NCBI GenBank assembly: GCA_039208735.1 | Contig: JBCCQY010000034.1 | Location: 1 to 64,000 of the forward strand | Direction: 5' to 3' | DNA length: 64,000 nucleotides | Origin: Myxococcota bacterium | GTDB taxonomy: Bacteria > Myxococcota_A > UBA796 > GCA-2862545 | Shown here: piece by piece, positions 13,597 to 42,871 of the stretch | Position numbering within the stretch: the stretch's first letter is position 1 | How the letters are laid out: every line of letters starts with the position of its first letter | Notes under the pieces: model-generated | What the model was told of the DNA's origin: nothing | The model's input: the letters and a program-made list of their open reading frames with translations, nothing else | Database searches by the model: none | Program-made: the position numbers and the translations under genes

Positions 13597-16500
13597 GTGA
13601 TGCTGCGAAACCCCGCTCTTCTCGAGATCGAACAGGCCGTCGGCCCCTACCGAATCCGTGGTCAGCTGGGCCGAGGTGGTGGTGGTGTCGTCTACCTCGC
13701 TCAACATGCTCAGTTGAAGACCTGGCACGCGCTCAAAGTCCCTTACGGTCTTGAAGGTCGACACCGGCGTCGAGCCCTACAGGAAGGCCGTCTCCAGGCG
13801 ACGCTCGATGACCGTTTCGTCGTCCCCGTGCGCGATGTGCTCGAGGTCCAAGGTGGACTGGCACTGGTCATGCCGTACGTCGATGGCTGCTCCCTCGAGG
13901 CGATCGTTGCCGAGGGTCCGGTCCCCCCCGACGAGGTGGCCCTCGTGACCCAAACGCTGCTTCGCAGTCTGGCCGCCATTCACGACGCAGGCATCGTGCA
14001 CCGCGACGTCAAGCCTTCGAACGTACTGCTCGATTTCGTCGATCAAGACGTTCGGCTTCGGATGGCCGATTTTGGCATTTCGATTGCGGGCGACGAGCCA
14101 AAGTCCGGCTCCCGCGCTTTTCGCGCCACCCACGCCTATGCCGCTCCCGAAGTCTGCCGCGGCGACGCGCGAGTCAGCTCGGCGGCCGATCTCTGGTCGG
14201 CAGGGGTGATGGTCTACGAAATGTTGGTTGGCGAAAGGCCATTTCCCGGCCCCTCCCCCGCGGATCTCGACCGCCAGATCCTCTCGGGGGCGGTCGAGGT
14301 GAGCCGGATCCCGGAACCTTGGGATGAGTGGCTGAGATGCTGGCTCGTCGCCGACATTGCGCTGCGACGGAAGACCGTCGCCCGTGTGCGTCAACACCTT
14401 GACGGGTGGGCCCCTGGGCTCCGGCTCGCCGATGGAACAGTAGGGCGAATCGTCTCGCAATGGCGCGAACACACCACCCAGGCGCCTAAAACGGCCCCCC
14501 TCTCTGGCACAACGGTAACTCCTTCGGGGGCTCCCACCGACGGGTCCATCTTCGTTCTCGCTGCGTTCGCGGATCGGTTTTCGGTGAGCCGTGAAGTCCA
14601 TCGACTTCAGGATCTCGGTGTGGACATGAACTACACGTTCCCGCAAGCGCCGACGATGACGCTCTCGAACCTGGATCAGGCCTCCCTAGTGTCGAGCAGC
14701 GCGGTCCTCGTCTTCTGGTCGGTGGCCGCACGTCGAGATCCCCGCGTCGACCAAGGCCTTCGGCTGGCTCGTGAGGTTCAATCACACCGCGATGGACCAC
14801 AACGGTTCGCAACCGGCGAATCGCTCGACGGCTCCCCTCTACCCGCAGGACTGACGGGTCGTCCGGGCCGCATCACCGCACCCGTTGCAGTGGCGCTCGG
14901 GATCGGGGTCGTAAATGGGCTCGTGATGCTGCAGCGTCCGTCTCTGCCCACTGCAGCCTGGGTCGCGGCCACAGTGGCGGTGCTGATCCCTTCGGTCGTC
15001 GCCATTTTGCAGCTGATGCGTCAATCGACTCGCTTGTTGCGGGTCGGCGCGATGTACGAATTGGGACGTTGGATCGACCAGGCCGACGTGACCGCCTTAC
15101 TGTCCACGGCGGAGCGCTTCATCCAATGGGTGTTCGGACCTCGCATCGTGTCCTGGCAGGCCTTCAGCCGCTCCGCTCTGTTGAGCCTCACCATCATTGC
15201 GCCAATCTTGTTCGTGTGGCCGATTCGGGCCTACGAGGTCAGTTTTGCGGTTGGTACGGACTTGACCGAGGCCGTGGGCATCTGGCGGCGTCATTTGTAT
15301 CGCGCGTGGTTATTCAGCTGGCAGATCGCGCTGGCCAACGTCATTCTCGACTTCCTTTCCCTGGCGTGGACCCGATGGTTGTTGCGATTCGCACTCGCTC
15401 GGCCGACGACCCGACGATTCATCGTCGTTCTCCTCGTCGACGTGTTGTTTGTGCTCGTGGCATCGCTGGCCATCCTTCATGCCAACCAGGAAGTTGTTGA
15501 GGTGTACGAGGCGGTGCCAGGCGCCTGGCTACAGCTGGTCGCGTCCGTGGTCGAAAGCCTCTTTCAGGGCGAATACAACCTCGCCGCAGCGCTTAAGGAC
15601 CCCATGTCCGCCATCGTCCTCTCGGCTTTGGCGGGGCTGGTGACCGGAGTCCTTCCAACACTGATTCACACTACGCTTTTGGCGTTGGGCCTGGTGAACC
15701 GCCTCGCCTTTCGTGGGCCGTTTCGGTTCTTCGGGGACATGCTGCGGCGAGTGGCAGACAGCCCACACGGTCCATGGAACATCGCCATCCCGCTCCTCGT
15801 GGGGGGCCTTGCCGTCACCGTATGGGTCCTGCCGCGGCCCCCTGTCCCAGCGGCGATCGACACCCTCACGAAGACCCTGTGGTCCGCGCCACTCGATGGG
15901 ATGGATTGTGGCGAACCGTGCTCGATTGGATGCCCGAAGCCCTACGTTCCTTGCGATGCCGATCAAGAGATCGTGGTCGAGCCGCCGGCGCGGCCCTTCG
16001 TGCTCACCAAGACCGAGATCACTCAAGAACTCTGGACCGCGGTCTGGGATGCTGCAGAAGAGGTGGTGCCCGACCGATATGGCTTGCCACGGGACCCGTC
16101 CCTCTACCGAGCCCCCACACGGCCCGTCGACAACGTGTCGTGGTGTCACGCCGTGCGTTTCGCGAACCTGTGGACCGCGGTAGAAGCCGTCGAAACACCG
16201 GCCCTTGAACCCGCCTACGTCAACGGCCACGGTCCGCATCTAGGGCGCTGTGAGCGGATTGGGGCGAGTCGAGTCCCCGAGTCACTCGGCTATCGCTTGC
16301 CGACCGATGCCGAATGGAGCACGGCGGCTGGCGTCAGCCCAGGACAGCGCTTCATCATGGGAGACGATGTGGCGGACCTCGAAACGGCAGCCTGGTACAT
16401 CGACAACTCCAACATGAGGTCCCATCTTGTTGGCCAGCTAAGACCCAACGTCCACGGGCTCTACGACCTGTCCGGCAATGTTCTCGAATGGACTGAGAGC

Positions 16501-16707
16501 GACTTCGTCGGCGACTTCACTGCCAAGCACAGCGCTTGGCGCACCTTACGGGGGGGCAGCTTCTATGCTCAATCCCACATTCTGCAGGTGAGTGTTCGAG
16601 CGGCGTTGCCGGTGGGGTGGCACGACAGTGAGACAGGGTTTCGCCTCGCACGCACCCTTTCCCCCATCGGGGCGACGGTGGTTGAACCACGACCAAGCCA
16701 CCGATAG
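13597..16707 (+). CDS. Ser/Thr kinase + TIR-like segment + multi-TM region + FGE-sulfatase (SUMF1/EgtB/PvdO-type) domain
   Basis: GRGGGG, ALK, HRDVKPSN, DFG, APE; C-terminal TEITQ, PVDNVSW, RLPTDAEW, PNVHGLYDLSGNVLEW, RGGS, GFRLAR. Confidence 0.9.
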   Translation: MMLRNPALLEIEQAVGPYRIRGQLGRGGGGVVYLAQHAQLKTWHALKVPYGLEGRHRRRALQEGRLQATLDDRFVVPVRDVLEVQGGLALVMPYVDGCSLEAIVAEGPVPPDEVALVTQTLLRSLAAIHDAGIVHRDVKPSNVLLDFVDQDVRLRMADFGISIAGDEPKSGSRAFRATHAYAAPEVCRGDARVSSAADLWSAGVMVYEMLVGERPFPGPSPADLDRQILSGAVEVSRIPEPWDEWLRCWLVADIALRRKTVARVRQHLDGWAPGLRLADGTVGRIVSQWREHTTQAPKTAPLSGTTVTPSGAPTDGSIFVLAAFADRFSVSREVHRLQDLGVDMNYTFPQAPTMTLSNLDQASLVSSSAVLVFWSVAARRDPRVDQGLRLAREVQSHRDGPQRFATGESLDGSPLPAGLTGRPGRITAPVAVALGIGVVNGLVMLQRPSLPTAAWVAATVAVLIPSVVAILQLMRQSTRLLRVGAMYELGRWIDQADVTALLSTAERFIQWVFGPRIVSWQAFSRSALLSLTIIAPILFVWPIRAYEVSFAVGTDLTEAVGIWRRHLYRAWLFSWQIALANVILDFLSLAWTRWLLRFALARPTTRRFIVVLLVDVLFVLVASLAILHANQEVVEVYEAVPGAWLQLVASVVESLFQGEYNLAAALKDPMSAIVLSALAGLVTGVLPTLIHTTLLALGLVNRLAFRGPFRFFGDMLRRVADSPHGPWNIAIPLLVGGLAVTVWVLPRPPVPAAIDTLTKTLWSAPLDGMDCGEPCSIGCPKPYVPCDADQEIVVEPPARPFVLTKTEITQELWTAVWDAAEEVVPDRYGLPRDPSLYRAPTRPVDNVSWCHAVRFANLWTAVEAVETPALEPAYVNGHGPHLGRCERIGASRVPESLGYRLPTDAEWSTAAGVSPGQRFIMGDDVADLETAAWYIDNSNMRSHLVGQLRPNVHGLYDLSGNVLEWTESDFVGDFTAKHSAWRTLRGGSFYAQSHILQVSVRAALPVGWHDSETGFRLARTLSPIGATVVEPRPSHR

Positions 16708-16731: not shown

Positions 16732-19700
16732 TCATCTGTGGCGGCGCTCGTCAGAGGTGAACGCGGCGGTGCGTAGTCGTCCCAGTCGGCTTTCGGGAGG
16801 GACGGCCAAGGCTTCCATCTGCGCATCAATCTCGGCGGAGTCGACCGCATCTCCCTCGAGGCGACGAGCCCAGGCCTGGGTGATCGCCCGTTCCAGCTCC
16901 AGGAGCGGCAACTCGCCCGGCACCTCGGCCACCTCGGCCAGCGCCGCCTCGGCTTGGGCGATGCGCCCATCGGCGAGGTACCGCTCGGCGAGCGCCACAT
17001 AGACCGATACCGCCACACTGCCCAAGGGATGCTGCCGAACGATCTCCATGGCCGCACGAAGGTAGCCGATGGCGACGTGGGATTCGGCGCGACGTCCCAG
17101 AGCCAAGTAAGCCTGCGCGATGAGTCCGTCGTCGGCACGCTCAAGCCCGATCTGGAGCGCCCGCTTGCCCAACGTCTCGGCGGTGGCCCGGTCAGGCGCC
17201 GTCAGGCAAGCGCCGAGGCACGCACTCGCGGCGCGGCGTTGGGAGTCCATGCGTTCCCAGCCCTCGACCGCCTCAACACTGTGATCAAAGGCGGCGGCCG
17301 AGTCCCGCTCTTGGAGTAGGAGCATCAGCCCGTGATGGGCACGTGCGATTGCTGACAGATCTTGCCCCTGTTGTGCCAGTCGCACCGCCGCTTCCAAGTG
17401 AGGACGCGCGGTCATGGGTTCACCGGAGCGCCGGCAAAGGTCAGCGAGCGAGAGGTGCCCGTGGCACTCCTTGAGCACATCGCCCTGTCGGTGAGCGGCG
17501 GCAATGGCCATTCGCCAGGCCGCAGGGGCATCCGAACGGCCCTCGTTCATCAGCATCTTGGCGCGCCATGACAACCGGAGCGACGCGCGGTTGGAATCGA
17601 CGAGCGCATCGTAAGCTCGGCGTGCGTACCGAGCGGCATTCGTGTACTCGCCTCGCTCAAACGCCCAACGGTACCGTTCGCTCACGACCTCCAAGGAGGC
17701 TTCGGGGTCTGCGGTCCGTTCCGCCGCCGCCTCGGCCCACTCGAGGTCCGCGAGCGCAGCGTCACGATCCCCAAGCCGCCGTACAAAAGCCCCTCGAAGC
17801 ACCCGGGTCCGGGCCTGGCCCGCTTCGTCGTCGTCGAAAAGGTTGAGAACCTGGCTCGCCAGTTCCGGGACCGCCGACGGAGGCCCCCACGACCACGCCA
17901 AGTCCGCCACCCCCATCAACAACCAGAGCGCCTGCTCCGCATTCCGGGCCTGAACCGCCCACTCGGCGGCCCGCTCGAGTTCGGGTCGAATCCGTCGCAG
18001 CTGTCTCAATTGTTCAGGTGGATAGAACGGGATCCGCTGCTTCACGTGCTCAACGACCCAGTCAGCGTGGCGTTCGGCCGCGAGGCCAGAAGGATCGTGC
18101 TTTTCGCGTTGGGCCGACGCCCAGGACCTCACCGAATGCGTCAATCTGAGCAGGACGGTGTCTGGAGCCTCGCCTGGGGTCTCGGCATGGAGCAGGCTCT
18201 GGTCTCGAAGCAATTGGATGACCTCGATGGCGTCGCCCGGCACGTCGACCACCGCGAGTGCCGCATCGAGGTCGAAGGACCCTGAAAACACCGAGAGCTG
18301 CACCAGTGCGGCCTTCGCCGGCTCCGACAACAACCCCCAAGACCACGCCACGGCATCTTCGATGCTCGCGTGTCGCCCCTTGCCCGTCGGCGACCGAGGA
18401 CGCTCGAGTGCGGTCAACAGCTGGGAGGTGCCCATAAGCCGCGTGCGGGCCGCGGCCAGCTCCAGCGCTAACGGCAGCCGGTCGAGCCGTTCGACCAGGG
18501 CCTCCAAGGTGGTCTCGTCGGTCGCAAAGGTGCCATGGATGGCCGTAGCCCGTTGTACGAAAAGTTCTCGAGCTTCTTCCGCGGCCAATGGGGGGACCTC
18601 GACAACGCGTTCGCCCACGAGCCCGGTGCGGCGTTGCGTGGTCACCAACAAGGGAGCCTCGGGGCCCGCTTGCCACAGCGCTTCGAGCAAGGGCTCATGG
18701 CCTTCGATCTGCTCGAGATTGTCGAGAACCAGCAATCCACCTCGCTGACTCCAGGCTCGTCCGAGGGCTGCCATTCGATCGAGCCGGGTGGGCACACTGG
18801 CGTGGAACACCCGGGCCACCCGCTCGACCATTTCGTCGGCGGTGCGTGCGGTCATGAGGTCGCACCACACACACCGGTCCCATTGGGCGGCGACCTCAGC
18901 GGCCAGGCGCGTCTTCCCGACCCCCGACGGACCCAGAAGGACGACGAGAGTTCGGGGCTGCAACACCTCAACCAGCTGCTTCCGCAGCGCTTCGCGGCCC
19001 ACAAACCGCGTTCGGGCACGCGGGGGCCCCACCGACGAAGGAGGAGGCCGTGGGTCGGCTGGAACGAAGACCGCTGGGGCGGGTTCGGGGGCGGGCTCCG
19101 GCACGCTTCGAAGCGCCGCTCCTAAAGCCCCTGACGAACGGCGCCCCACGTCCTCGAGAGCACGTTTTCCGGCTTGAACCTGCTGCTTGGCCTCTCGATA
19201 GCGGTCCAACGCCACCAACGCCCGGACGAGGTCTGCGCGCAGTGCCTCGTCGAGCGCGCGGGCGGCGACCAGTTCGCGTAACCATGGCAAGCGTGTTTCG
19301 GGTTCATGGGGGTGCCGAGCGACGAGTTCCTCGAGCGCCTCCACCCGTAGCGTAGCCAAGGCCTCCCGCTCTGCGAGCAGCCACGCTTGGAAGGTATCGA
19401 AGTCTTCGAACTCCAATCCTTCGAGCAATTCGGGTTTGAGTTGTTGCGTGAGTTCGGCGAGGTCCGAGCTGGGCAAGTCCCCAATGCCGTCCGCGACAAG
19501 GGCCCGGACGGCCAGCACGTCGATCTCCATCCCCTCGACGTTGAAGGATACCGACGTGCGCGACGCCTGGACCCTCGGGAGGTCCGGCTCGTCCACCACC
19601 TTGCGCAGTCGCGACAACACCCATCGCAGCGCAGCTCTGGGATCGTCAGCCACATCCCAAAGCAGCGTGCAGAGGCGTTCGCGCCGGTGCTCGCGGCCGG

Positions 19701-19830
19701 TGAGGACGAGGTAGGCAAGCATCGCCCGCATCTTCTTGGAACGAGGCAGCGCCACCGCGGCGCCGTCACGCTCTACGACCAGCTCCCCCAACATTGAAAG
19801 GCGCAGCGCCACGAACCCGGGCTCCAACAT
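16732..19830 (-). CDS. AfsR/SARP-type regulator: wHTH + BTAD + STAND (NB-ARC-like) ATPase + TPR
   Basis: RAMLAYLVL...RERLCTLLW...ALRWVLSRLRK; FQAWLLAERE; FVGRE; GPSGVGKT; LLVLDNLE; LDRLPLALELAAAR. Confidence 0.88.
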   Translation of the reverse strand: MLEPGFVALRLSMLGELVVERDGAAVALPRSKKMRAMLAYLVLTGREHRRERLCTLLWDVADDPRAALRWVLSRLRKVVDEPDLPRVQASRTSVSFNVEGMEIDVLAVRALVADGIGDLPSSDLAELTQQLKPELLEGLEFEDFDTFQAWLLAEREALATLRVEALEELVARHPHEPETRLPWLRELVAARALDEALRADLVRALVALDRYREAKQQVQAGKRALEDVGRRSSGALGAALRSVPEPAPEPAPAVFVPADPRPPPSSVGPPRARTRFVGREALRKQLVEVLQPRTLVVLLGPSGVGKTRLAAEVAAQWDRCVWCDLMTARTADEMVERVARVFHASVPTRLDRMAALGRAWSQRGGLLVLDNLEQIEGHEPLLEALWQAGPEAPLLVTTQRRTGLVGERVVEVPPLAAEEARELFVQRATAIHGTFATDETTLEALVERLDRLPLALELAAARTRLMGTSQLLTALERPRSPTGKGRHASIEDAVAWSWGLLSEPAKAALVQLSVFSGSFDLDAALAVVDVPGDAIEVIQLLRDQSLLHAETPGEAPDTVLLRLTHSVRSWASAQREKHDPSGLAAERHADWVVEHVKQRIPFYPPEQLRQLRRIRPELERAAEWAVQARNAEQALWLLMGVADLAWSWGPPSAVPELASQVLNLFDDDEAGQARTRVLRGAFVRRLGDRDAALADLEWAEAAAERTADPEASLEVVSERYRWAFERGEYTNAARYARRAYDALVDSNRASLRLSWRAKMLMNEGRSDAPAAWRMAIAAAHRQGDVLKECHGHLSLADLCRRSGEPMTARPHLEAAVRLAQQGQDLSAIARAHHGLMLLLQERDSAAAFDHSVEAVEGWERMDSQRRAASACLGACLTAPDRATAETLGKRALQIGLERADDGLIAQAYLALGRRAESHVAIGYLRAAMEIVRQHPLGSVAVSVYVALAERYLADGRIAQAEAALAEVAEVPGELPLLELERAITQAWARRLEGDAVDSAEIDAQMEALAVPPESRLGRLRTAAFTSDERRHR

Positions 19831-19893
19831 TTCGGAGCAGTGTACCGCGCGGGTGATGGTCGCCTGCGCGCAGTTGCTCCTGCGTAGAAACGC

Positions 19894-22800
19894 CTACCGC
19901 CGAGTGTCCCTGAGATGCTGCGCTTGGTGAGCGTGCTCCAAGACAAAGGCTTGAAGGGCGTCCATCGTGGGGTGGTCGAACGCCAAGGTAGGAGGCAAGA
20001 CCACACCGAGGTGACCGGCAAGCCGCTCGCGAAGCTCCATCGCCATGATGCTGTCCATCCCGACCTCGAAGAAGCTGGTGCTCCGATCGAGCGGATCGGT
20101 CGACGAACGACCAAGCACCTCGTGTACGGTACGCTCAACGACCTCATCAAGCGGCACGTCGACCGCCGACGCCAATGGCGAGGGTTCCTGGGTCGACACC
20201 CCCGCAAGACGAGCAACCAGGCGTACCCCCGGCCGAGACGCGCGAAACGCCGCCCAGTCGAAGGGCGCAACCACCCAGGCTCCCGATCCGGCAGCGAGGC
20301 AGCGCTCAAACACGTCCACCCCAACGGCGGGCGAAAGCGCCTGGATGCCCGAGGCTTCCCATTCTCTGCGGATGCTTGGCGGGACGCGATCGGCCAGTCC
20401 ATCGCCCGCCCAAGGCCCCCATGCAATGAGGGTTGTGGGCAACCCCTGCCGCTGGCGCCATTGCGCAAAGGCATCCAGGAACGCATTCGCCGCTGCGTAG
20501 GCCCCTTGACCGGGGTTCCCCAACCATCCTGCGATCGAGCCGAACAAAACGAGGAACTGCAAGTCGGGGAGCGACCGGTGAAGCGCACGAGTCCCGGCAA
20601 CTTTCGACCGAAGTACCGTTTCGATCTGAGCCTCGGAGAGGTGTTGGAGGGCGGTATCTGCGGTGACGCCTGCACAATGAACCGCCCCTACGATGGGCTC
20701 GTCGAGGTCCTCGATGAGGGACGAAAGCGCGACCTCCTCGGCAACGTCCATGGCACGAACGGTGACGTTGCAGCCCTCCTCCTCAAGGTCCCGAACCAGC
20801 TCCGCCGCCCGCTCGTGGTCCCCCCCGCGACGCGACGCCAGGACGAGATGACGGGCGCCTCGTGAGGCAAGCCGCCGCGCCATGGCTCCGCCGAGTGCCC
20901 CAAACGCCCCTGTGATCAGGATTGCGCCATCGGGTGGAGACCAGGAGGCCGACGCGACGTCCTGCGGCAAGAGCCGGGCCACTTCGATCCGATCCGTGCC
21001 AACGCGGATCACATCGTCGTCGAGGCCCGCTTCGAGGACGCTCAACAATCGGTCTGGTGCCGCGTCTAGTTCGATGCACCCACCACGACGTAGGGGCTGC
21101 TCGCTAACAAGGGTTCGCCACAGTCCCCTCAGAACCGCGGTGTCGGGCTCCTGAGCGTCCCGCGTTACGAACCACACCTCGGCGGCCGCAGGCAAGTCGC
21201 GAATCGCATGGACAGCCAGGGGAACAATGGCCTCGGCCAAACTTCCCGTTGGCGCAACGATCACGCCCATCGCGTGCTCGACCATCTCGGAATGCACCGT
21301 GGCCCCTCGAGCGACCAGAGCATCGGCGATCGCGGGGTCGCCCAGCACCACCCACGGTCCCTCAAGATCCCGGTGAGGCGCGGCTAGCGACGTGGGATGC
21401 CATGCGACCCGGAGGATCGACGTTTGCCGCGCTTCTTGCGACACTTCAGGCACCCAAAACCGCTCGGTGGACCGTTGGGTAGGCGGCATGGCGATCCGAC
21501 GGCCCGCGCCCAGGTGATCGAGGTCGATGCCCGAGAGCCGTAGACGCCCGAAGGCGAGCAGGAGCGCGGAGGGTTCATCCACCGCACGGTCCAGCGATGC
21601 CACACAGGACGTCCGAACACCGTTCCTCCTCGCCAACTCTGCGAGGACCGATCGGGGCCCGATCTCGAGGAAGCCGTCGCAATCGTCCGCAACGGCCTGG
21701 TTGACCGCATCCGCGAACCGCACCGGCTCTCGAGCCTGCCGTACCCAGTACGCAGGGGTCGCCATCACCTCGGCGGTCAATGTGGAATCGACCGTCGAAA
21801 CCATGGGTACATCTGGCTTGTGAAACGACAGGGACTCCGCGACCTTAGCGAGCCCCGATAGCGCCGGTCCCATCAAGGGACTGTGGAAGGCTCGCTCCAC
21901 CTGAAGGGAGCGGGTGCCGATGCCGCTGGTCGTGAAACGCTCCACGACGGCTTGAACGGCAACCTCCTCTCCCGAAATCACGGTTTCGTGGGGCGCGTTG
22001 ACCGCAGCAATGGTGACGCCATCCACGCGTTCGCAAATCGCCCCGACCAGCGAAGCCTCGGCAAAGAGGACGGCCATGGCTCCGCCGAGCGGCAGCTCCC
22101 CCATCTGTCGCCCTCGCTCCACAACCAGTTTGGCTGCATCATCGAGCGACAACATCCCCGCGACATGCGCCGCCGCGATCTCTCCCACCGAATGCCCGAT
22201 GACCGCATCGGGCTCGACGCCTCGCTCGTGCCACCACGAAGCGAGCGCCACCTGCAGCGCGAACAACGCGGGCTGGGTGTAACGGGTGCGATGCACGTCC
22301 TCGGTGCCGATTCGAGCGAGCAACGATTCGCCCAGATGCGAGTCGACGGCGTCGAGAACCTGGTCGTGGGCCCTCGCAAAGGACTCGTTACTGGCCCGCA
22401 GTCCTGCGCCCATGCCGACGTACTGGGAGCCCTGGCCCGAAAACAGGAAGGCCAGCCCAGCCGGTGTTCGTCGCTCGGTGCGAGCCACCCCGGTCGTCGT
22501 GTCTCCCCGCAGCCGTTCTCGGGCTTCCGCGGCCGTCGTCGCGACGACCGCAACCCCATGCCGAAGCTTCGCGCGCCCCGCTTGGGACACAAAAGCGGCA
22601 TCCGCCAACGCATCGTCGTCTAATGCCTCCGCCCACGCCACCGCCGTCCGACTGGCCGCATCGCGATCTCCTGCAGAGAGGGTGAACAGCACCGGACCGG
22701 CGTCGTGAGGAAACGGAGGCATCGACGGCGCACGTCCCAACACCACATGGGCATTCGTGCCCGAGAGTCCGAAGGAGCTGACCCCGGCGATTCGTCGATC

Positions 22801-23985
22801 GTCGGACCAATCCAGGGCGGACGTTGGAATCCGCAGGGCGGACCCCTCGAGCCGAATTCGTGGATTGAGAGGCTCGGCGTTCCGCTGTGGGGGAATCGTG
22901 GCATAGCGAATCGCCAGGGCAGCCTTGAGCAATCCCGTGATGCCCGCCGCTGCTTCCACATGCCCGACGTTCGCCTTGACGGAACCCAACCATACCGGCC
23001 GGCCATCGGCGCGAGCATTGAACACCTCGCGGAGAGCGGCAATCTCGATGGGATCGCCAAGGGGCGTTCCTGTCCCGTGCGCCTCGACCAATCCCACTTG
23101 GTCTGCATCCACATTCGCCACCCGCAACGCAGACCGAATGACCTGGGTTTGGGCACGCGCCGAGGGAGCCGTGAGGCCGTTCGACCGCCCGTCGTGATTG
23201 AGCGCGCTGCCCAAGATCACCGCCCAGGGCTCATGGCCTTTGTCGAGGGCGTCCGACAGGCGCATCAGGTGCAACATGACCGCGCCCTCGCCGCGCCCGT
23301 ACCCGTCGGCATGGGCGGAAAAGGTCTTGCAACGACCATCGTTTGCCAAGACCCCCAGCCGATGAAAGTACAGTCCGGGCACCGGGGAGAGCACGAGGTT
23401 CACGCCACCGGCCAACGCCGACTCAACTTCGCCGGCCCGAAGCGCGGTCACCGCCGTGTGCAATGCCACCAGCGAAGAGGAGCATGCCGTGTCCAAGGAC
23501 ATCGCCGGGCCGGTCAGCCCCAGCAGGTATGCAACGCGCCCCGCCGCCACCGAGAGAAACGCGCCCGTGCCCGCGTATGGAGTGATCCGGTCCGAATCCG
23601 AAGACAGAAAGTGCCGTCGCCCATAGTCCGAAAGCCCAACTCCGACGTACACTCCGACAGGCCGGTTCGCGAGCTGGTCGGGTGCCGTCCCCGACGACTC
23701 GAGCGCCTCCCAGGCGACGTCCAAAAGGAGCCGCTGAGCGGGGTCCATATCGACGGCCTCGCGGGGCGAAATGCCGTAGAACGCCGCATCAAACTGGTCA
23801 ATATCCTGCAGGAATCCGCCCCGGGTCGGGGCCTCGGGCCAGGCATGAACGTCCCATCGCCCCTCTGGAACCTCGCCGATCGCGTCGACCCCATCGACGA
23901 GAAGCTTCCAGTAGCTCTGCAAGTCCACGACGCCGCCCGGAAGCCGCAGGCCCGCACCGATGATCGCGATGGGTGGTGGTTGCAT
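19894..23985 (-). CDS. Type I polyketide synthase, single module KS-AT-KR-ACP (no DH, ER or TE)
   Basis: KS DTACSSS/HGTGT/KANVGH; AT GQGSQ, GHSVG, AFHS; KR GAFGALG, YAAAN; ACP GMDSIMA; ATG 23985 lies 4 nt after the upstream stop. Confidence 0.95.
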   Translation of the reverse strand: MQPPPIAIIGAGLRLPGGVVDLQSYWKLLVDGVDAIGEVPEGRWDVHAWPEAPTRGGFLQDIDQFDAAFYGISPREAVDMDPAQRLLLDVAWEALESSGTAPDQLANRPVGVYVGVGLSDYGRRHFLSSDSDRITPYAGTGAFLSVAAGRVAYLLGLTGPAMSLDTACSSSLVALHTAVTALRAGEVESALAGGVNLVLSPVPGLYFHRLGVLANDGRCKTFSAHADGYGRGEGAVMLHLMRLSDALDKGHEPWAVILGSALNHDGRSNGLTAPSARAQTQVIRSALRVANVDADQVGLVEAHGTGTPLGDPIEIAALREVFNARADGRPVWLGSVKANVGHVEAAAGITGLLKAALAIRYATIPPQRNAEPLNPRIRLEGSALRIPTSALDWSDDRRIAGVSSFGLSGTNAHVVLGRAPSMPPFPHDAGPVLFTLSAGDRDAASRTAVAWAEALDDDALADAAFVSQAGRAKLRHGVAVVATTAAEARERLRGDTTTGVARTERRTPAGLAFLFSGQGSQYVGMGAGLRASNESFARAHDQVLDAVDSHLGESLLARIGTEDVHRTRYTQPALFALQVALASWWHERGVEPDAVIGHSVGEIAAAHVAGMLSLDDAAKLVVERGRQMGELPLGGAMAVLFAEASLVGAICERVDGVTIAAVNAPHETVISGEEVAVQAVVERFTTSGIGTRSLQVERAFHSPLMGPALSGLAKVAESLSFHKPDVPMVSTVDSTLTAEVMATPAYWVRQAREPVRFADAVNQAVADDCDGFLEIGPRSVLAELARRNGVRTSCVASLDRAVDEPSALLLAFGRLRLSGIDLDHLGAGRRIAMPPTQRSTERFWVPEVSQEARQTSILRVAWHPTSLAAPHRDLEGPWVVLGDPAIADALVARGATVHSEMVEHAMGVIVAPTGSLAEAIVPLAVHAIRDLPAAAEVWFVTRDAQEPDTAVLRGLWRTLVSEQPLRRGGCIELDAAPDRLLSVLEAGLDDDVIRVGTDRIEVARLLPQDVASASWSPPDGAILITGAFGALGGAMARRLASRGARHLVLASRRGGDHERAAELVRDLEEEGCNVTVRAMDVAEEVALSSLIEDLDEPIVGAVHCAGVTADTALQHLSEAQIETVLRSKVAGTRALHRSLPDLQFLVLFGSIAGWLGNPGQGAYAAANAFLDAFAQWRQRQGLPTTLIAWGPWAGDGLADRVPPSIRREWEASGIQALSPAVGVDVFERCLAAGSGAWVVAPFDWAAFRASRPGVRLVARLAGVSTQEPSPLASAVDVPLDEVVERTVHEVLGRSSTDPLDRSTSFFEVGMDSIMAMELRERLAGHLGVVLPPTLAFDHPTMDALQAFVLEHAHQAQHLRDTRR

Positions 23986-23989
23986 GCCC

Positions 23990-25120
23990 CTACAACTCAA
24001 CGAAGGGGAACGGCGCTTCGGGAGGGTTCATGCTCCACCGCAACAAGGCCGCCGCCTGGGTGAAGCCGGCGCCAGGGATGTAGATGAGCACAAGGTCTCC
24101 CTTCTTCAGACGACCCGACGACCACGCTACCCAGAGGTTCAGTGGCGCACTGGCGGACAGCGTGTGAGCGAACCGTTGAAAGTGTTCTTCAGCGGGCACG
24201 ATGCGACGGTCGTCGATGCCGATGACCGCCGCACACGCTTCGCCAAACCACACCCCCGCCTGGGCACAAATGAAGAAGTCAACGTCGTCGGTGGTGAGCT
24301 GATTGCGCTCCAACAGCGCATGACACGCTTCAGCGGCGTAGTTTGGGCCCGAAGTACCCATCTGCACCGCCAAACGCGGGTCACGGGCCTGAATGACCAT
24401 GCGGCTTTCGGGAGCGCCCGACTCATACCACCGGCGCCGCCCATCGGTTGCCGCCAGCACGATGCCCTCGCGGAGTCCCCCCTTCGTCAGTTGCAACCCA
24501 TCGACGAAGCCAAGCCCCTCCTCGACGGGCCCGACTACCTGGGCCACCGCCGCATCACCCAGCTGGGTCGACGTGGGGTCCGTGTAGTCGATGATGCGCG
24601 ATGTCGCGCTCGACTGGAACAAAAGCGCGGAACGACCGTCTGTGCACAGACGACTGGCGTGGATGAACTGGGGGACGAAGCTTGCGCAGCTTGCGGCCAC
24701 CGTCATGGCGCTCAATGGTTGCCCGAGGGATGGCAGCCGGTGCGCGACGAGGCCGTGGTTGCCGAGCCCCGCATCATCTGAGACGGTGCTGTAGCCGAGC
24801 AGTGTCTGAACTTCAGAGGGTTCTCCCTGCAGCCCCTCAAGGGCTTGGGTGCACGCTGCGACCTCGAGGTCGCTCGCTTCGTGATCCTCATCGATCGCGC
24901 GTCGCTCCTTTGCCCCTCGGAACGGATCGTCGGTCCAGCGACTGGCGGCCCGCCATGCTGGCGAAGCTCGATCGTTGGCTACCCGCGAATGGCTCTCGTT
25001 GATGACCCCGCTTGGAGTGACGGGAAATCCGTTTTCGATCCACCAGGCATTCGATCGAACCGTCTTGGGTAGACAAGCGCCCAGCGAGCGAATCCCGACG
25101 CCATTACCGTCCTTTGGCAT
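23990..25120 (-). CDS. 3-oxoacyl-ACP synthase III (FabH-fold) enzyme with non-canonical active site
   Basis: VGIRSLGACLP, DPFRGAKERR, AASCASF (Cys), LGDAA, DFFICAQAG, FAHTLSAS, GDLVL..PGAG; ATG 25120 overlaps the upstream gene end. Confidence 0.88.
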   Translation of the reverse strand: MPKDGNGVGIRSLGACLPKTVRSNAWWIENGFPVTPSGVINESHSRVANDRASPAWRAASRWTDDPFRGAKERRAIDEDHEASDLEVAACTQALEGLQGEPSEVQTLLGYSTVSDDAGLGNHGLVAHRLPSLGQPLSAMTVAASCASFVPQFIHASRLCTDGRSALLFQSSATSRIIDYTDPTSTQLGDAAVAQVVGPVEEGLGFVDGLQLTKGGLREGIVLAATDGRRRWYESGAPESRMVIQARDPRLAVQMGTSGPNYAAEACHALLERNQLTTDDVDFFICAQAGVWFGEACAAVIGIDDRRIVPAEEHFQRFAHTLSASAPLNLWVAWSSGRLKKGDLVLIYIPGAGFTQAAALLRWSMNPPEAPFPFVEL

Positions 25121-26771
25121 TGTTCTTTCCCTTGAAACCGGCCGCCCGTGGATTGGTCGGCCGCACTGTGGGGTCGATGGGAATCCGAAGCACGAGCGGC
25201 CCATCCAGGCGGTCGGGGGGCTCGAGATCGGACAACGCCATCACGTCGATGGCTTGGGCCCCCATAGCCCTCGCGAAGTCGACCAACGAGACATCCGCAC
25301 GGTCTCCATGCGCAGATCGGCCGTAGCTTTCCTTCATTCCATGGTTCACCATGCCCCAACCACCGTCATCGAAAACCGCGAGCACCAGGGGTACTCGGTA
25401 GCGGACCGCGGTAGCCAGTTCGTTGCCCACCATGAGCATCGTGCCATCGCCGCAGATGCAGACGATCGGGAGAACACCCCCAACTTCGGCCGCCATGCCC
25501 ATGGCCCGGCCCACCGAAGCTCCCATGCCCCCAAGCCCGATGCGCACTTGAAAGCCTCCCGGAGGCGTCTTCATGGCCGCAGAGAACAACAAGTGATTGC
25601 CGATGTCGGACAGAAATCGAGTGTTGGCGGGCCAACGTTTCTCGAAGACCTCCACCACCACCCGAGGATCGAAAGGGGGAGTAGGCACTACGATAGGCTG
25701 GGAAGGGCCTGCTTCCTGTCGCCGCCCACACGCCTCCACGAGATGCTCGCAGGCCAGGGCAAGGTCACCGACGATCGCAACATCAACGGCAAAGGCTCGG
25801 CCGATACGAACTGGATCATGGTCCATTTGGATTCGTGTGCAATCCGAGTTCGCCGTCAGTGTGAAGCCTGCCGTGCTCGTGTCGTCGAGGCGCACGCCAA
25901 CCGTCAAAAGCACGTCGATGGGCTCGGCGAGGTAACGCGAAACCTTCTCGGTCTGCCCAATCCCCAGCGCACCCAAGACCATTGGGTCGTCGGGCGCGAA
26001 CAAGGATCGAGCCTCGATATCCGTCAAGATTGGCATCTTGAGCTGGGCCGCAAGCCTCGACAATTCGGGCCCCAGTTCGCGAACCTGGGCGCCGAGCCCC
26101 GCGATGATGGCGCCCCGTTTGGCCTCACGGAGGTGTTGGGCTGCCTCCTCAATCGCGGCCTGGTCGGGCATCACGGGTTGTGGAGGAGGCGGCAGTGCGG
26201 AATGGTCGGGCAGTTGCAGCCTCGCCAAAGCTTGATCGACCGGCAAACGAATCACCGCGGGGCCCTGCGGATAGGTCATCGCTGCTTGCCAGGCGCTTTC
26301 CATCAGCTCCACGACCGACCCCGGCTCATCCAGCGCCGCCTGGAATCGAGTCAAGGGTTGCAAGATCTGCCCAATGTTCAATCCCTGGGGCCCTCCGTCC
26401 TGAAGAGCCCCTTTCCCCGACCATTCTGAACGAACTTCGCCCACCAGAACCAGAAGGGGGATTTCGTCTTCCTTGGCGGCTGCGATGGGAGTGATGGCGT
26501 TCAGGATGCCAGGGCCACTCGTGACCGCGAGGACCCCTGGTCGCCGGGTTGCGAGCGCCTCGCCGGCCGCGAGGTGCCCCGCCATTCCCTCATGTTGGCA
26601 CTCGACGAGTTCGAGCGAACAGTCGTTGAGTGCATCGAAAAATGGACTGATGGCCCCTCCGGGAATCCCATACACTCTGGTGATTCCTCGGTCTTCGAGC
26701 CATCGCGCAATCGTATCCGCCGCTCTTAGCGGAGCGGCAATCTGGGTGGTTCGGCTGCTTGGCTCCTTCAT
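25104..26771 (-). CDS. Thiamine diphosphate-dependent enzyme (acetolactate synthase-like carboligase)
   Basis: YGIPGG, QHE, TSGPG, GGMG, GDG...FDDGGWGMV cofactor motif; start ATG 26771 preferred, GTG 26816 possible. Confidence 0.92.
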   Translation of the reverse strand: MKEPSSRTTQIAAPLRAADTIARWLEDRGITRVYGIPGGAISPFFDALNDCSLELVECQHEGMAGHLAAGEALATRRPGVLAVTSGPGILNAITPIAAAKEDEIPLLVLVGEVRSEWSGKGALQDGGPQGLNIGQILQPLTRFQAALDEPGSVVELMESAWQAAMTYPQGPAVIRLPVDQALARLQLPDHSALPPPPQPVMPDQAAIEEAAQHLREAKRGAIIAGLGAQVRELGPELSRLAAQLKMPILTDIEARSLFAPDDPMVLGALGIGQTEKVSRYLAEPIDVLLTVGVRLDDTSTAGFTLTANSDCTRIQMDHDPVRIGRAFAVDVAIVGDLALACEHLVEACGRRQEAGPSQPIVVPTPPFDPRVVVEVFEKRWPANTRFLSDIGNHLLFSAAMKTPPGGFQVRIGLGGMGASVGRAMGMAAEVGGVLPIVCICGDGTMLMVGNELATAVRYRVPLVLAVFDDGGWGMVNHGMKESYGRSAHGDRADVSLVDFARAMGAQAIDVMALSDLEPPDRLDGPLVLRIPIDPTVRPTNPRAAGFKGKNNAKGR

Positions 26772-26816
26772 GGCCTGTCGCTCGGCGGAGGGCACGAGCG
26801 CGAAGATGGAATCCAC

Positions 26817-26947
26817 ATATTATAGCTATCCCCTATATAATAATGCGAGCAAGCCTAGGAATTTGGCCCTATTGTACGGATAATCAATCCTGAGCCAACG
26901 CGGAAAATTTTCATGAATTTTGCAGAATGAACATGACTTTTTGCAGA
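26817..26947 (-). promoter_or_regulatory. AT-rich promoter region of the ThDP/KASIII/PKS operon
   Basis: TATAAT on - strand at 26824-26819; direct repeat CATGA-x-T(4-5)GCAGA at 26912-26926 and 26932-26947; palindrome GAAAATTTTC at 26903-26912. Confidence 0.55.
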
Positions 26948-27116
26948 CAGTTCTAAGAACCGCTCCAGTAACGGCTCCTAGCTAGCCACTTCGGCAATGC
27001 TCAGACGCGATCTCGACACTGGCTTCCCGCACAGTGCGTCGAAGATCGTAGACCCTACCGGCCGATACAGAGCCCAAGAAGGGCCGTATCGCTCGCTTCA
27101 AGGTCGTTAGGACGAT

Positions 27117-27145
27117 GCGGTGGGAGGCCGTGCCTCACCTACCGC
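27117..27145. terminator. GC-rich hairpin downstream of the VWA gene, possible terminator or RNA stabiliser
   Basis: GCGGTGGGAGGC-cgt-GCCTCACCTACCGC imperfect stem; no U-tract. Confidence 0.25.
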
Positions 27146-27183
27146 CAAACCAATACCCAACGACGGGGAACTCCCAAGCCAGA

Positions 27184-28257
27184 CTACTTGGGCTCGACCT
27201 CTACAGAACCCTGAGTCGCTGACAGCAACGTGTACGTGACCTGGATGCGGTCGAGGGGATCGGGGAGGAAGTTTTGGAAGGTGATGGAGTTGCGAGTCTC
27301 GTCGTAAGTCCATTCCCCAGAGATCAATACAGGAGGTTCGCTTTCGTCGAAAACGGCTCGATCGAAGCCAATCTTTGTCGGCTGTGGTGCGCCGGTGTCG
27401 CGGAGCACGACGACCTCGATGGTGTCGGCCACAGGCGTCTGCGAAAGGAAGTACTCCCTCTTCAACCCCGAAGCCTGGATGCCGAGCCGCTCGAGGACCG
27501 AGGCCCATGCTTCGTTCTGGATATCGGCCTCAACCCCGCCGATCTGATCGGTGACTTCAAGGTAGCGAGTACCGGGCGACTCGGTGATGTAAACGACGCA
27601 GTTCGGAAAACAGACGATAGATGAGAAACTTCGCTCGTCCAGCGATGACTTTAATCCGTCGTACCACCGTATGTATTCGCCTAGCGAAATCAGGCTGTCT
27701 GGCGTCTGATCGTTCTCATCGCTGATGGTCACGACATGCAGCGAGGCATCATCTCGGTAGAACCCTTCGTTCTGTGGGGCATCCCGTTTGAGTTCGAGCA
27801 TCGTGTAGCTCGATGCAAGCCCCTGCTCGATTCCTGAGCCGCTAGTTCCCAGCCGAGCCATTCCGTTGAAGACCAGCGACGCATCTGGGACGTTCGGCGT
27901 GATGAAGCGGAGTCCTTCCGACTCCCTTAGGATTCCGGCTTCGACCGAGTTGTCCACATCCGTAGAGACCGCGCCAATATGGTAGTCCAGGCCCGAACCC
28001 TCAAAGAACTCCATGAAAGTCGGAAAGTTCTCGCTCAGTTGCGCCTGATTGTTGTCCATCGAGCAACTGTTGTCGATGACGAATAGGATGTCGACCGCAG
28101 GCGTCGTGACCTGAGTGATCGTATCGGTTTGGGAAATGACCTCGGGCGGTCGGGCGGCCGGCACTTGGGCTTGCTCTGCATCATCGCCGAACGTGACGTC
28201 GCCTTGGCAAGCAACAAGGACCGAAAACAGTGCGACTCGCGAAAACCATCGGTTCAT
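27184..28257 (-). CDS. VWA-like (MIDAS) lipoprotein of the myxobacterial type
   Basis: LVAC lipobox; VDILFVIDNSCSM (DxSxS), DYHIGAVSTD, EQGL, FYRDDASLHVVTISDENDQ. Confidence 0.85.
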   Translation of the reverse strand: MNRWFSRVALFSVLVACQGDVTFGDDAEQAQVPAARPPEVISQTDTITQVTTPAVDILFVIDNSCSMDNNQAQLSENFPTFMEFFEGSGLDYHIGAVSTDVDNSVEAGILRESEGLRFITPNVPDASLVFNGMARLGTSGSGIEQGLASSYTMLELKRDAPQNEGFYRDDASLHVVTISDENDQTPDSLISLGEYIRWYDGLKSSLDERSFSSIVCFPNCVVYITESPGTRYLEVTDQIGGVEADIQNEAWASVLERLGIQASGLKREYFLSQTPVADTIEVVVLRDTGAPQPTKIGFDRAVFDESEPPVLISGEWTYDETRNSITFQNFLPDPLDRIQVTYTLLSATQGSVEVEPK

Positions 28258-29044: not shown

Positions 29045-30406
29045 CTAGCGGCTCGCGGCCACCCGAGGACGTTGCAGCGACGTTGCATGGGCGATGTCTG
29101 AGAGATCCGGAATCCAAACTCGGAACGTCGACCCCTCACCCAGCGTTGACGAAACATCAATTCCGCCCTGCATCATCTTGGCAAAGTGACGCGAGATCGT
29201 CAGACCAAGGCCCGTACCCCCATGTCGACGTCGACTCGAGTTGTCGGCTTGCTCAAAGGGACGGAACAGACGATCGATCTGGTCCGATGGAATACCAATG
29301 CCGGTGTCGGAAATGGCAATTCCAAGCCGGCCGCCTGCGTTGTCGACCTTGACGACGATTCGCCCATTCTCGGTGAACTTAGCGGCGTTCGAAAGAAGGT
29401 TCAGCAGGATTTGGCGCACTTTCCGCCGGTCGAGCCACAGCAGGGGCAGCGTTGAATCTACGTCGACGTGGATGGTCGTGTTTCGTTCTGTCGCCACCGG
29501 GCGAATGGTCTGTATGGACTCCTGGATGAGGCCGGGTACGTCGACCAGTTCAAGGTCAAGATGCATCTGTCCGGCTTCGATTTTCGACATGTCAAGGACG
29601 TCGTTCACCAACGACAACAGGTGCGTGCCTGACCGGTGGATTCGTTCGACATCTTCGTGCTCGGCTGTCGAGGCGAGATCCTCGAGCAACAGCTCCGAAT
29701 AGCCGAGAATCGCGTTGAGTGGTGTACGAAGCTCATGCGACATCGTGGCCAGAAAACGGCTTTTGGCCTGACTTGCCGCATCGGCCTCCCGGACGGACTG
29801 TTCGAGGAGTATCTGATTTTCAGCTAGCGACTTTGCTTGCTGTCGAGCTCGGGCCGCCTCATCCCGAAGCCGGCCGACCACCCAGCTCACGACAAAACCG
29901 ATCATGGAGGTCTGGGCGATTGTCACTGCCACAAGAATGGTGAAGGGGTCCGCATCAAGGATGAACCATTCATCGCTCGAACCCAACCCATAGACCGCAA
30001 GTTGAACGGCGATGGCCCATCCGGTCAAGAACAACCCGACGTTGCGGCCGAGCATCAACGCGCCCATCAGGGCGAAAAGAACGAAGATCGGGGGCAAACC
30101 AAGGTCGTATCCACCGGCCATGAAGCTTAGCGGAGTGACGGCCAGCACGAGCGTTCCTACCGGAAGCCATGCCGCGGCTCCCACCGCACCCCGATGCAAC
30201 AGCGCCTTGGACGCAAGCAGGATCACGAACACCGGCAACAGGGTCAGGGTCGCCATCCGAAGCTGCGGCGTGGTCAGGTAGAGAACAGACAATAGTGAGA
30301 GGAAGCCCAGTCCCAATACGAGCGTGAAGTTGATGACCGCCGCGCGTTCGTTGAGTTCAGGGTCGTCGAACCGCGGACCTCTTAGCCAGTCGAGCAGTGC
30401 GTTCAT
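29045..30406 (-). CDS. Membrane sensor histidine kinase
   Basis: FLATMSHELRTPL, NLLSNAAKFT, DTGIG, GGTGLGL. Confidence 0.93.
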   Translation of the reverse strand: MNALLDWLRGPRFDDPELNERAAVINFTLVLGLGFLSLLSVLYLTTPQLRMATLTLLPVFVILLASKALLHRGAVGAAAWLPVGTLVLAVTPLSFMAGGYDLGLPPIFVLFALMGALMLGRNVGLFLTGWAIAVQLAVYGLGSSDEWFILDADPFTILVAVTIAQTSMIGFVVSWVVGRLRDEAARARQQAKSLAENQILLEQSVREADAASQAKSRFLATMSHELRTPLNAILGYSELLLEDLASTAEHEDVERIHRSGTHLLSLVNDVLDMSKIEAGQMHLDLELVDVPGLIQESIQTIRPVATERNTTIHVDVDSTLPLLWLDRRKVRQILLNLLSNAAKFTENGRIVVKVDNAGGRLGIAISDTGIGIPSDQIDRLFRPFEQADNSSRRRHGGTGLGLTISRHFAKMMQGGIDVSSTLGEGSTFRVWIPDLSDIAHATSLQRPRVAASR

Positions 30407-30473
30407 AGGCGTCCCCGGACCACTGGCCCATTGAAGGTCGTGGGTTCAATGTATTCCACCCAGACCCGATGGA

Positions 30474-31520
30474 TCACGCGACCGGCACCTCGACCCAACG
30501 CATTCCAGACTCCTCTGCGCTCACGCCGCCAAGACGCTCCGCAAGGCGCTCCACCACCGTACCCGCGATGTCTGCGGTAGGGGTGTCGAGGGACGTCGGT
30601 GCCTCAAGACGCAGCCAACCCGAACGGGGCTGACTGGCAGCCAGCGTGACCCCCTTCCTGTCCGAACTCTCGACCAGGGAGACGACAAGTAGACGGAGCA
30701 CGTCGACATCGAGCGTCGCCGACATTCCGGGGTGGATCGTGCTCGCAACTGAAGTACCCGCGTCGATCGCCGCGGAGGTCACCTCATCGTTCAACACCAC
30801 CACCCTCGGGGCCAGGGTCACGCGTTCCGCCTCGATCCGTGCCAAATCCAAGACCCGATTGACCCGCCCAAGTAGCCGGCGTGCCGCATGCTCGATGCGA
30901 TCGAGATCGGCAACCTCATCCACGGCACCGGCATCTTCGGCTTCGTCGCGAAGCAGATCGGCGTAGCCAAGGACCGCATTCAGGGGTGTACGCAGATCGT
31001 GAGAGCAGTTGGCAAGCAAGCGACTCTTCGCGAGGTTGAAGCTGCAGACAGCGACCAGCGCAACGAACAGCGCGCCGGTGAGGCTCATTCCAACACTGCT
31101 CTGGGCTCCACCGAGGGGAGCGTCGAGGAACCATCCGATTAGCGTCGTCGTGACCATGACCAACCCGAGGCTTAGGGCGCCGAGCCGTGCTCCTCCGGCC
31201 AGCGCCCCAACGACGGGTACAAGAGCCACGTACACCGTCGTGGAACCCGCGAGCCCGCTTTCAAGCACTCCGAACACCGTCGCGACGCCACTCACGGCGG
31301 TCAGCCACACCGCAGCGACGGCAACCCTGCCAAACCACACCAGCACGGGCGCTCCAACGCACAAGGCGGCGGCTAGTCCGTTGATGAGGGCCAGATCCCA
31401 ACGCCCTCTCGCCATTTGCCCACCGGCGAGCACGACTGACAATACCGTCGCGAGGAGCCCAAAGGTCTGAACGAAGCTCGCCCTCCGCTGTTCAACAGCC
31501 TGCCCTCCCGATGGCCTCAC
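30474..31520 (-). CDS. Histidine kinase-like membrane protein with HisKA domain and degenerate ATPase domain
   Basis: LLANCSHDLRTPLNAVLGY present; N, G1 and G2 boxes absent; GTGA overlap with the upstream kinase. Confidence 0.8.
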   Translation of the reverse strand: MRPSGGQAVEQRRASFVQTFGLLATVLSVVLAGGQMARGRWDLALINGLAAALCVGAPVLVWFGRVAVAAVWLTAVSGVATVFGVLESGLAGSTTVYVALVPVVGALAGGARLGALSLGLVMVTTTLIGWFLDAPLGGAQSSVGMSLTGALFVALVAVCSFNLAKSRLLANCSHDLRTPLNAVLGYADLLRDEAEDAGAVDEVADLDRIEHAARRLLGRVNRVLDLARIEAERVTLAPRVVVLNDEVTSAAIDAGTSVASTIHPGMSATLDVDVLRLLVVSLVESSDRKGVTLAASQPRSGWLRLEAPTSLDTPTADIAGTVVERLAERLGGVSAEESGMRWVEVPVA

Positions 31521-42638: not shown

Positions 42639-42871
42639 GTCAGGCCGAGGGGGGCTGAGACGGGTGAACCAAATCGTCCGCTCCGCGTGGGAAGGTCCTG
42701 CGCCAAGAGGGGATCTCGTCAATGGCCAGCATCGGAAATTCCGATGCCCGGTTTGGCGCCCTTCGCTCTCCATTACGGCTCTTCGGTCCAATTGGGACAT
42801 GGCCCCTAAGCGAAGGCGTGCGGCGAACTGCCTATGGTGCTGCGGCGCCTGGCCGGGCGCCCGGAGGCAAC

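Follow-up and report, generated by a model that had tools for sequence, protein, structure and literature searches.

We find that a 64,000-nucleotide (nt) stretch of DNA from an uncultured myxobacterium (Myxococcota bacterium, assembly GCA_039208735.1, contig JBCCQY010000034.1, positions 1 to 64,000; here, the window) carries on its minus strand a coupled operon that encodes a thiamine diphosphate (ThDP)-dependent carboligase, an enzyme resembling β-ketoacyl-acyl carrier protein synthase III (KAS III-like), and a single polyketide synthase (PKS) module. The first two genes correspond to a known pair, published for cyanobacteria and proposed for marine myxobacteria, which judging from its sequence is a furanolide-type cassette that is widespread in Myxococcota. 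The polyketide module is the new element of the operon, with no counterpart in the loci and databases searched. By analogy with characterized pathways, we give an even chance to the proposal that the module would make a 3-hydroxyacyl chain on its acyl carrier protein (ACP), and that the KAS III-like enzyme would place this chain on an acyloin to give an alkyl butenolide or an acyloin ester.

The gene order, read from the list of open reading frames (ORFs), the junction sequences and the translations, is ThDP enzyme, KAS III-like enzyme and PKS module. The putative CybE-type carboligase is encoded at 26771..25104 (ATG to TAA, 555 residues) and matches the Pfam families TPP_enzyme_N, M and C with E-values of 2e-34 to 1e-23; initiation at a GTG at 26816 instead would lengthen the protein to 570 residues. 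Its gene overlaps by 17 nt that of the putative CybF-type, KAS III-like enzyme (25120..23990, ATG to TAG, 376 residues; ACP_syn_III and ACP_syn_III_C), whose start at 25120 is backed by the N-termini of 25 homologs. The ATG of the PKS gene (23985..19894, 1363 residues) sits 4 nt past the KAS III-like stop codon, and Pfam and the translation identify the product as a stand-alone type I module of ketosynthase (KS), acyltransferase (AT), ketoreductase (KR) and ACP domains. The overlap and gap reported in a first-pass annotation of this DNA are correct by sequence and translation, as are its domain anatomy and family assignments by Pfam.

As a check of the junctions, Logan contigs of four sequencing runs were placed on 19500-27300. 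Two contigs of the probable source run (X1) cover this entire interval with zero differences. A run from a different study (X2) contributes a 574-nt contig with 17 differences that bridges the KAS III/PKS junction (23502-24075) and a 636-nt contig with 9 differences that bridges the ThDP/KAS III junction (24578-25212); another run of that study (X6) adds a 303-nt contig over 23789-24090. Because a variant diverged by ≈3% (≈97% identical) keeps both gene junctions, the operon is not an assembly chimera, and the presence of a coupled ThDP, KAS III-like and PKS operon in an uncultured myxobacterium is confirmed.

Among proteins of solved structure, the ThDP enzyme is most similar to CsmA (8x3z; 8e-63, 216 bits, residues 16-530 aligned), followed by BbmA (8x3x; 3.6e-57, 198 bits), with acetolactate synthases scoring below both, at 174 bits for the best, an ancestral reconstruction, and at most 143 bits for natural ones. 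CsmA and "BpmA", a name that the Protein Data Bank entry spells BbmA, are called CybE homologs in the excerpted text of one study (PMC12395478). The window enzyme reaches 240 bits against TIGR00118, for which the cut-off is 538; the true IlvB is encoded elsewhere in the genome, on contig C185, by a gene that exceeds this cut-off. The score and the separate IlvB argue that the enzyme is not the housekeeping IlvB, a grouping that the first-pass annotation had named as fatal to its own proposal, and we class it as a putative CybE-type carboligase, judged via CsmA and BbmA rather than CybE itself. About 50 relatives are found at E ≤ 1e-60, nearly all of them metagenomic, the two named ones being from Archangium sp. 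and Nannocystis sp. Four ThDP enzymes of 688-712 residues (P0346, P0347, P0348 and P0350), 32-34% identical to that of the window, carry a precomputed Response_reg domain; in such receiver-fused relatives, the carboligase would be under direct two-component control.

The KAS III-like enzyme matches FabH weakly in the solved-structure search (3e-19), and its alignment to FabH reveals an altered active site, in which the cysteine is retained as Cys145, the position of His244 is occupied by Ala (motif I-C-A-Q) and that of Asn274 by His319. A word-index search returns 27 relatives with E-values from 1e-134 to 6e-47, then a steep fall to ordinary FabH at 2e-27; a 26-row family alignment shows no exception to Cys145 (26/26) or Asn328, and at least 90% of its rows have His319. 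Profile searching of 1.84 billion representatives gives 775 proteins at E ≤ 1e-30, among them P0130 from Enhygromyxa salina, which is 374 residues long and named 3-oxoacyl-ACP synthase 3. Table S6 of PMC8777810 gives ENSA7_38410 (1125 bp) as the cybF homolog of strain SWB007 of this species, and P0130 appears to match it, as judged by species, annotation and length rather than by a locus tag. The window protein (P0002) is 34% identical to P0130 over 364 residues (E 7e-59) and shares its signature of a cysteine, no FabH histidine and the substituted histidine.

These relationships are mirrored in a FastTree phylogeny of 85 rows chosen from 173 aligned (20 close family rows, P0123-P0134 in full, every third remaining hit, 13 picked by signature and 6 FabH-like). 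P0002 and P0130 fall in one 30-row clade (support 93), 29 members of which have the signature, and a 45-row clade with the FabH histidine retained (support 95) contains FabH and a Streptomyces member. Cluster look-ups across the family supplied names for the E. salina protein, two proteins of Myxococcales metagenome-assembled genomes (MAGs) and one Streptomyces protein, and a cyanobacterial CybF was not identified among these names. The nearest Atlas cluster is mostly cyanobacterial (379 residues; feature similarity 0.96, structural TM 0.86), a lead rather than a test. We thus assign the enzyme as probably CybF-type, by way of the clade it shares with E. salina P0130 rather than through the Tolypothrix CybF. 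The CsmA and BbmA matches and this shared clade together bear out the likeness to CybE/CybF proposed at the outset.

The same data bear on whether the operon follows a carbazole-type logic, which would lead to an acyclic or differently cyclised acyloin-derived product and not to a furanolide-type lactone. The carbazole enzymes NzsH/NzsJ/NzsI (CqsB3/B1/B2) are described, in excerpts of PMC7466098, as a ThDP enzyme and a KAS III-like enzyme acting with a 3-hydroxyacyl-ACP donor; the KR of the window module would yield such a donor, of the β-hydroxyacyl-ACP kind that CqsB1/CqsB2 require, and NzsH/J/I-like clusters are reported from a myxobacterium (same excerpts). In the carbazole pathway, a KAS III and FabG together with a discrete ACP build the donor, and a cyclase specific to the pathway is also needed, whereas no cyclase-type family is found by Pfam in the 47 ORFs of the window (scanned as 13 + 34). 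The KAS III-like protein, moreover, lacks the FabH histidine and sits in the tree with the cybF-type protein of E. salina, outside the histidine-bearing clade of FabH and a Streptomyces member; this places it in another clade than the carbazole type by active-site signature, in a comparison that does not contain NzsJ itself. With CsmA, a named CybE homolog, among the best solved relatives of the ThDP enzyme, we regard a carbazole-type outcome as improbable.

The PKS module appears fully equipped for one round of extension and ketoreduction. Functional modular PKSs are recognized by a Cys-His-His set in the KS, GHSxG in the AT, Lys-Ser-Tyr-Asn in the KR and the modified serine of the ACP, and all of these catalytic motifs are intact in the translation. 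Pfam identifies the ketoacyl-synt N and C, Acyl_transf_1, KR and PP-binding families, all on the minus strand and numbered here on a 1368-residue frame. The KS (22876..23973; residues 10-375) contains DTACSSS, HGTGT and NVGH, which hold its Cys, His and His. The AT (21529..22449; 518-824) has GHSVGE, and RAFH in the place of HAFH or YASH, which we take to indicate malonyl specificity. In the KR (20407..20928; 1025-1198), the NADPH motif and the Lys, Ser, Tyr and Asn are present, with TAD in the LDD place and the A-type Trp absent, so that the domain is presumably B-type. The ACP (19954..20139; 1288-1349) carries its phosphopantetheine serine in GMDS. Pfam finds no dehydratase (DH), enoylreductase (ER), thioesterase (TE) or loading domain in the protein, in line with the earlier statement that loading module and thioesterase are lacking, and a DH would not fit into the ≈200 residues that link AT and KR.

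What surrounds the module is equally sparse. Its own ACP is the sole PP-binding match on the contig of the window, on which AMP-binding gives no match, and the 47 window ORFs contain no Pfam family of CoA ligases, free ACPs or acetolactate synthase small subunits, nor a dehydratase, cyclase, aminotransferase or thioesterase-domain PKS partner. The reported absence of an acyl-CoA ligase, a free ACP and ilvN/ilvH from the window therefore holds, and for the first two it extends to the whole contig.

Conservation was examined by tblastn of the three proteins in Myxococcota genomes and MAGs, at 28 related loci. We find that a ThDP gene adjoins the KAS III-like gene in 23/28 loci (7/9, 3/3 and 13/16 in three sets), with one of the three ThDP-less loci in the 16-locus set running off a contig edge, and that a PKS is present in none. 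The conserved synteny expected from the first-pass annotation is thus borne out for the ThDP/KAS III pair and not for the three-gene set, which recurs only in the ≈97% identical variant. A genome-contig scan with the single KAS III-like protein found no relative, a search with a 13-row KAS III alignment found 4 loci, and a metagenome-contig scan found nothing. Myxobacterial cybE/cybF pairs have already been published (PMC8777810).

The nearest relatives of the module itself are single modules within PKS frames of 2070-4692 residues, mostly longer than 4000, that are 45-48% identical and come from the same family of genomes, one of them from the same genome as the window (contig C29). A collection of 5.8 billion clusters holds no close ortholog, the best hits listed being 35-47% identical, and none of the listed hits could be traced to a contig carrying relatives of the pair. 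Because the module is absent from the 28 related loci and has no close ortholog in that collection, we conclude that it is a lineage-specific addition to the pair, and its sequence relationships point to a probable origin in one of the local multimodular PKSs.

Such an origin also fits a PKS that is a mere passenger, that is, a duplicated module that landed behind the pair and is co-transcribed with it, serving another pathway or idle, with the pair keeping the donor of its PKS-less relatives. The absence of a PKS from all related loci is what this explanation predicts, and in G004, a genome of the same genus, the gene after the pair (52% and 56-57% identity) is a convergent one and not a PKS. 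The neighbourhood has in addition been rearranged, with an operon for a protein of the STAND family that flanks the pair in 6/9 same-type loci lying here on another contig, and the closest relatives of the module are found within large PKS genes of the lineage. Set against this, the 4-nt spacing, the common strand and the intact motifs of all four domains point to a working, co-translated gene; a lone module without a TE needs release in trans, for which the KAS III-like enzyme is the sole candidate nearby; and the arrangement is retained in the ≈3% diverged variant. We consider a passenger module unlikely on balance.

The known systems indicate how a module of this kind could instead feed the pair. 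CybE/CybF of cyanobacterin biosynthesis, and the corresponding pairs of the nostoclide (ncl) and maculalactone pathways, likewise place a ThDP acyloin synthase beside a Cys-active KAS III-like enzyme. In cyanobacterin-type clusters, as far as the excerpted accounts describe them, an ammonia lyase and a CoA ligase furnish the donor, an enoyl-CoA. The contig of the window encodes neither enzyme; the operon has a KS-AT-KR-ACP module instead, and its predicted donor would be ACP-bound, aliphatic and β-hydroxylated. Homologs of cybE/cybF in Plesiocystis pacifica and E. salina, proposed to act in the biosynthesis of the (deoxy)enhygrolides, are also without a PKS (PMC8777810). The E. salina pair resembles that of the window in being from the same phylum, with the same KAS III clade and signature, and in consisting of two genes co-localised without the remaining cyb operon, but the two KAS III-like proteins share only 34% identity; the enhygrolide role of the P. 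pacifica and E. salina pairs is unproven, since the producer could not be mutated (PMC8777810). A third comparison is offered by the tetronate enzymes RkD and NvlD, which in excerpts of PMC9324945 are FabH-like, form a five-membered lactone from an ACP-bound PKS chain and so release it. They use glyceryl-ACP as partner substrate, which an FkbH-like enzyme makes on an ACP of its own, whereas none of the 47 scanned window ORFs shows such a family, the contig has no second ACP, and the partner would be an acyloin made by the ThDP enzyme.

In the pathway that we propose, the ThDP enzyme would make the acyloin acceptor. The KS would be primed by an acyl thioester from primary metabolism, and one malonyl extension followed by reduction would give a (3R)-3-hydroxyacyl-ACP. 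The KAS III-like enzyme, acting via Cys145, would then acylate the tertiary alcohol of the acyloin and close the lactone, and this acyl transfer would also free the chain from a module that lacks a thioesterase. A CybF-type furanolide synthase is defined by O-acylation, a Morita-Baylis-Hillman-type ring closure and a 1,4-hydride shift. In the window's system, the β-hydroxyl could take the role that the Michael adduct has in the CybF mechanism, its loss leading to the unsaturated product; by our own reasoning, a 3-hydroxyacyl ester could reach the same product through aldol closure and loss of water. The module would most likely have come from one of the lineage's multimodular PKS genes, recruited in place of a CoA ligase route. 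We favour the PKS as acyl donor, with offloading by the KAS III-like enzyme, because the genes are translationally coupled and the contig encodes no release domain, other carrier or ligase, and because published CybF chemistry, together with carbazole and tetronate KAS III-like enzymes that take ACP-bound donors, provides precedent for the step.

Several observations weigh against this proposal. The CybF cascade takes an α,β-unsaturated acyl-CoA, as reported in the excerpted portions of PMC12395478 and PMC13288894, but a KR without a DH would provide a 3-hydroxyacyl donor, on an ACP rather than on CoA. Elsewhere in the genome there are 27 AMP-binding matches and two genes of the aromatic ammonia-lyase family (Lyase_aromatic matches are confined to contig C45), and because these genes exist, a conventional cinnamoyl-type donor may be possible for the pair. 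The tblastn result for the 28 loci indicates that the pair works elsewhere without a PKS, and the comparative support for its association with the module is the one ≈97% identical variant in the metagenome of another study. In favour of the proposal stand two precedents in the excerpted literature: FabH-like enzymes of tetronate pathways offload ACP-bound chains (PMC9324945), and in carbazole biosynthesis a KAS III-like enzyme couples a 3-hydroxyacyl-ACP with a ThDP-made acyloin (PMC7466098).

The order of events could also be reversed, with the KAS III-like enzyme priming the module with a ThDP-derived starter that the module then extends and reduces, to be released by an enzyme encoded elsewhere. 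The module does lack a loading domain, and KAS III enzymes often prime carrier proteins, as NzsF does with NzsE in the excerpted account of the carbazole pathway (PMC7466098). The product of the ThDP enzyme, however, is a free acid and not a thioester, in 23 related loci the pair has neither a PKS nor an ACP with it, and decarboxylative Claisen priming depends on the His and Asn of FabH, both of which have been lost from the clade of the KAS III-like enzyme. These features render the reversed order very unlikely.

The KAS III-like genes of the 28 loci resolve into four subtypes by active-site signature, and these differ in their genomic surroundings. Relatives of the window's subtype (9 other loci) lie beside a large STAND-protein operon and not beside kinases; in the other three subtypes, hybrid histidine kinases are frequent neighbours. 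In the former, a STAND/AAA_16 protein of 1300-1750 residues adjoins the pair in 6/9 loci (L011:10675-19941, L013:5760-9941, L014:5208-9509, L021:5861-15652, L022:11092-20881 and L015:12295-16188). Five of these six proteins are alike nearly end to end, and that of L015 matches three of the others over 430 to 1170 residues. The genome of the window has a counterpart of this operon on another contig (L025:3953-14054) with a similar three-gene arrangement, and two large genes without Pfam matches precede the STAND protein in at least L011 and the window's own genome. A defence role for these neighbours was considered and set aside, as nine of the proteins gave 0 PADLOC matches. Two loci of one genus (L012:6705-10480 and L016:38-2716) have a KAS III-like gene of the window's subtype without a ThDP neighbour, adjoining a gene for a PPDK_N/PEP-utilizer (phosphotransferase-type) protein.

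The other three subtypes account for 19 loci, and in 11 of these the gene directly beside the KAS III-like one encodes a hybrid histidine kinase, which follows on the same strand in eight (L023, L057, L059, L060, L062, L063, L067 and L069) and is convergent in three (L061, L065 and L066). The same-strand kinases often have the architecture HisKA-HATPase-REC-HATPase and ≈1000 residues; upstream, L023 and L067 encode HTH_17-receiver regulators, and L057 encodes a DUF2378 protein. The fourth subtype is marked by the signature F-H/N-T-P ... A-N, and its pairs are found beside luciferase-like monooxygenases (L061:1859-3931, L065:731-2827, L066:6668-7753), an aminotransferase with cytochrome P450s (L018:9629-13631, L071:7564-9969) or alpha/beta hydrolases (L064:9236-10276, L068:12528-13646), which suggests further tailored products.

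In the window, the operon is preceded by a 412-nt intergenic region (26772..27183, minus strand) containing a promoter-like site, TTGGCT-16-TACAAT, at 26898..26871 on the same strand; the promoter and terminator scan gave 2 sites where 1.2 are expected, which is not above chance. A gene for a STAND NTPase of 1032 residues (16732..19830, minus strand; AAA_16/NB-ARC/nSTAND1) begins 63 nt 3' of the PKS gene, and as no terminator-like site lies in this gap, it is possibly co-transcribed with the PKS, although its membership in the operon is doubtful. It was also considered as the counterpart of the conserved STAND partner and rejected, since it has no BLASTP match to the STAND proteins of the relatives and is one of 55 matches in the genome. 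This ≈1000-residue family, with NB-ARC/AAA_16 plus repeats and an N-terminal ≈250 residues that differ between paralogs, has two copies in the window, the second at 44119-47310 (+). An Rfam scan gave no matches and a tRNA scan no genes, and a repeat search around the PKS gene returned short chance matches, with no insertion footprint.

Other genes of the window and genome are recorded here as separate observations. Five histidine kinase genes lie in the window, at 29045-32743 (-), 5754-7130 (-) and 42722-44155 (+), and three of them are consecutive, 2.3 kb upstream of the operon; the second of these three has HisKA but no ATPase domain. Convergent with the downstream STAND gene is a gene (13597-16707, +) whose product of 1036 residues has a Ser/Thr protein kinase domain and, at its C-terminal end, an FGE-sulfatase (formylglycine-generating enzyme-like) domain. 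On contig C13 of the genome (77640-88569), a stretch of 11 kb contains a FabH-like gene, an AMP-binding gene and a PKS frame in which four PP-binding domains stand in tandem; this cluster resembles one for polyunsaturated fatty acid synthase-like or other lipid biosynthesis and has no relation to the operon.

Furanolides are bioactive lactones, the core of which requires two enzymes and an activated acid. If that acid is delivered by a PKS carrier here, the side chains available to this scaffold would widen from cinnamate-type to polyketide-type, and the KAS III-like enzyme would represent a new release route for a chain held on a thioesterase-less module. At 6.9 kb and from an uncultured source, the operon is a compact target for heterologous expression, and with it the ThDP/KAS III cassettes of Myxococcota gain a further variant. 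The furanolide nostoclide is described in excerpts of PMC9324945 as a chemical mediator in Nostoc punctiforme, and by analogy a signalling role for the product of the operon is conceivable. A far-reaching extension of these ideas, speculative and rather unlikely, is that the operon is a PKS-fed furanolide synthase making a new alkyl-butenolide class that serves uncultured marine or mat-dwelling myxobacteria as a diffusible signal, and that ThDP/KAS III signal synthases form a family across the phylum of which it is one branch. Elsewhere in the phylum, members of such a family would be connected with hybrid histidine kinases, with ThDP enzymes fused to receivers or with STAND proteins.

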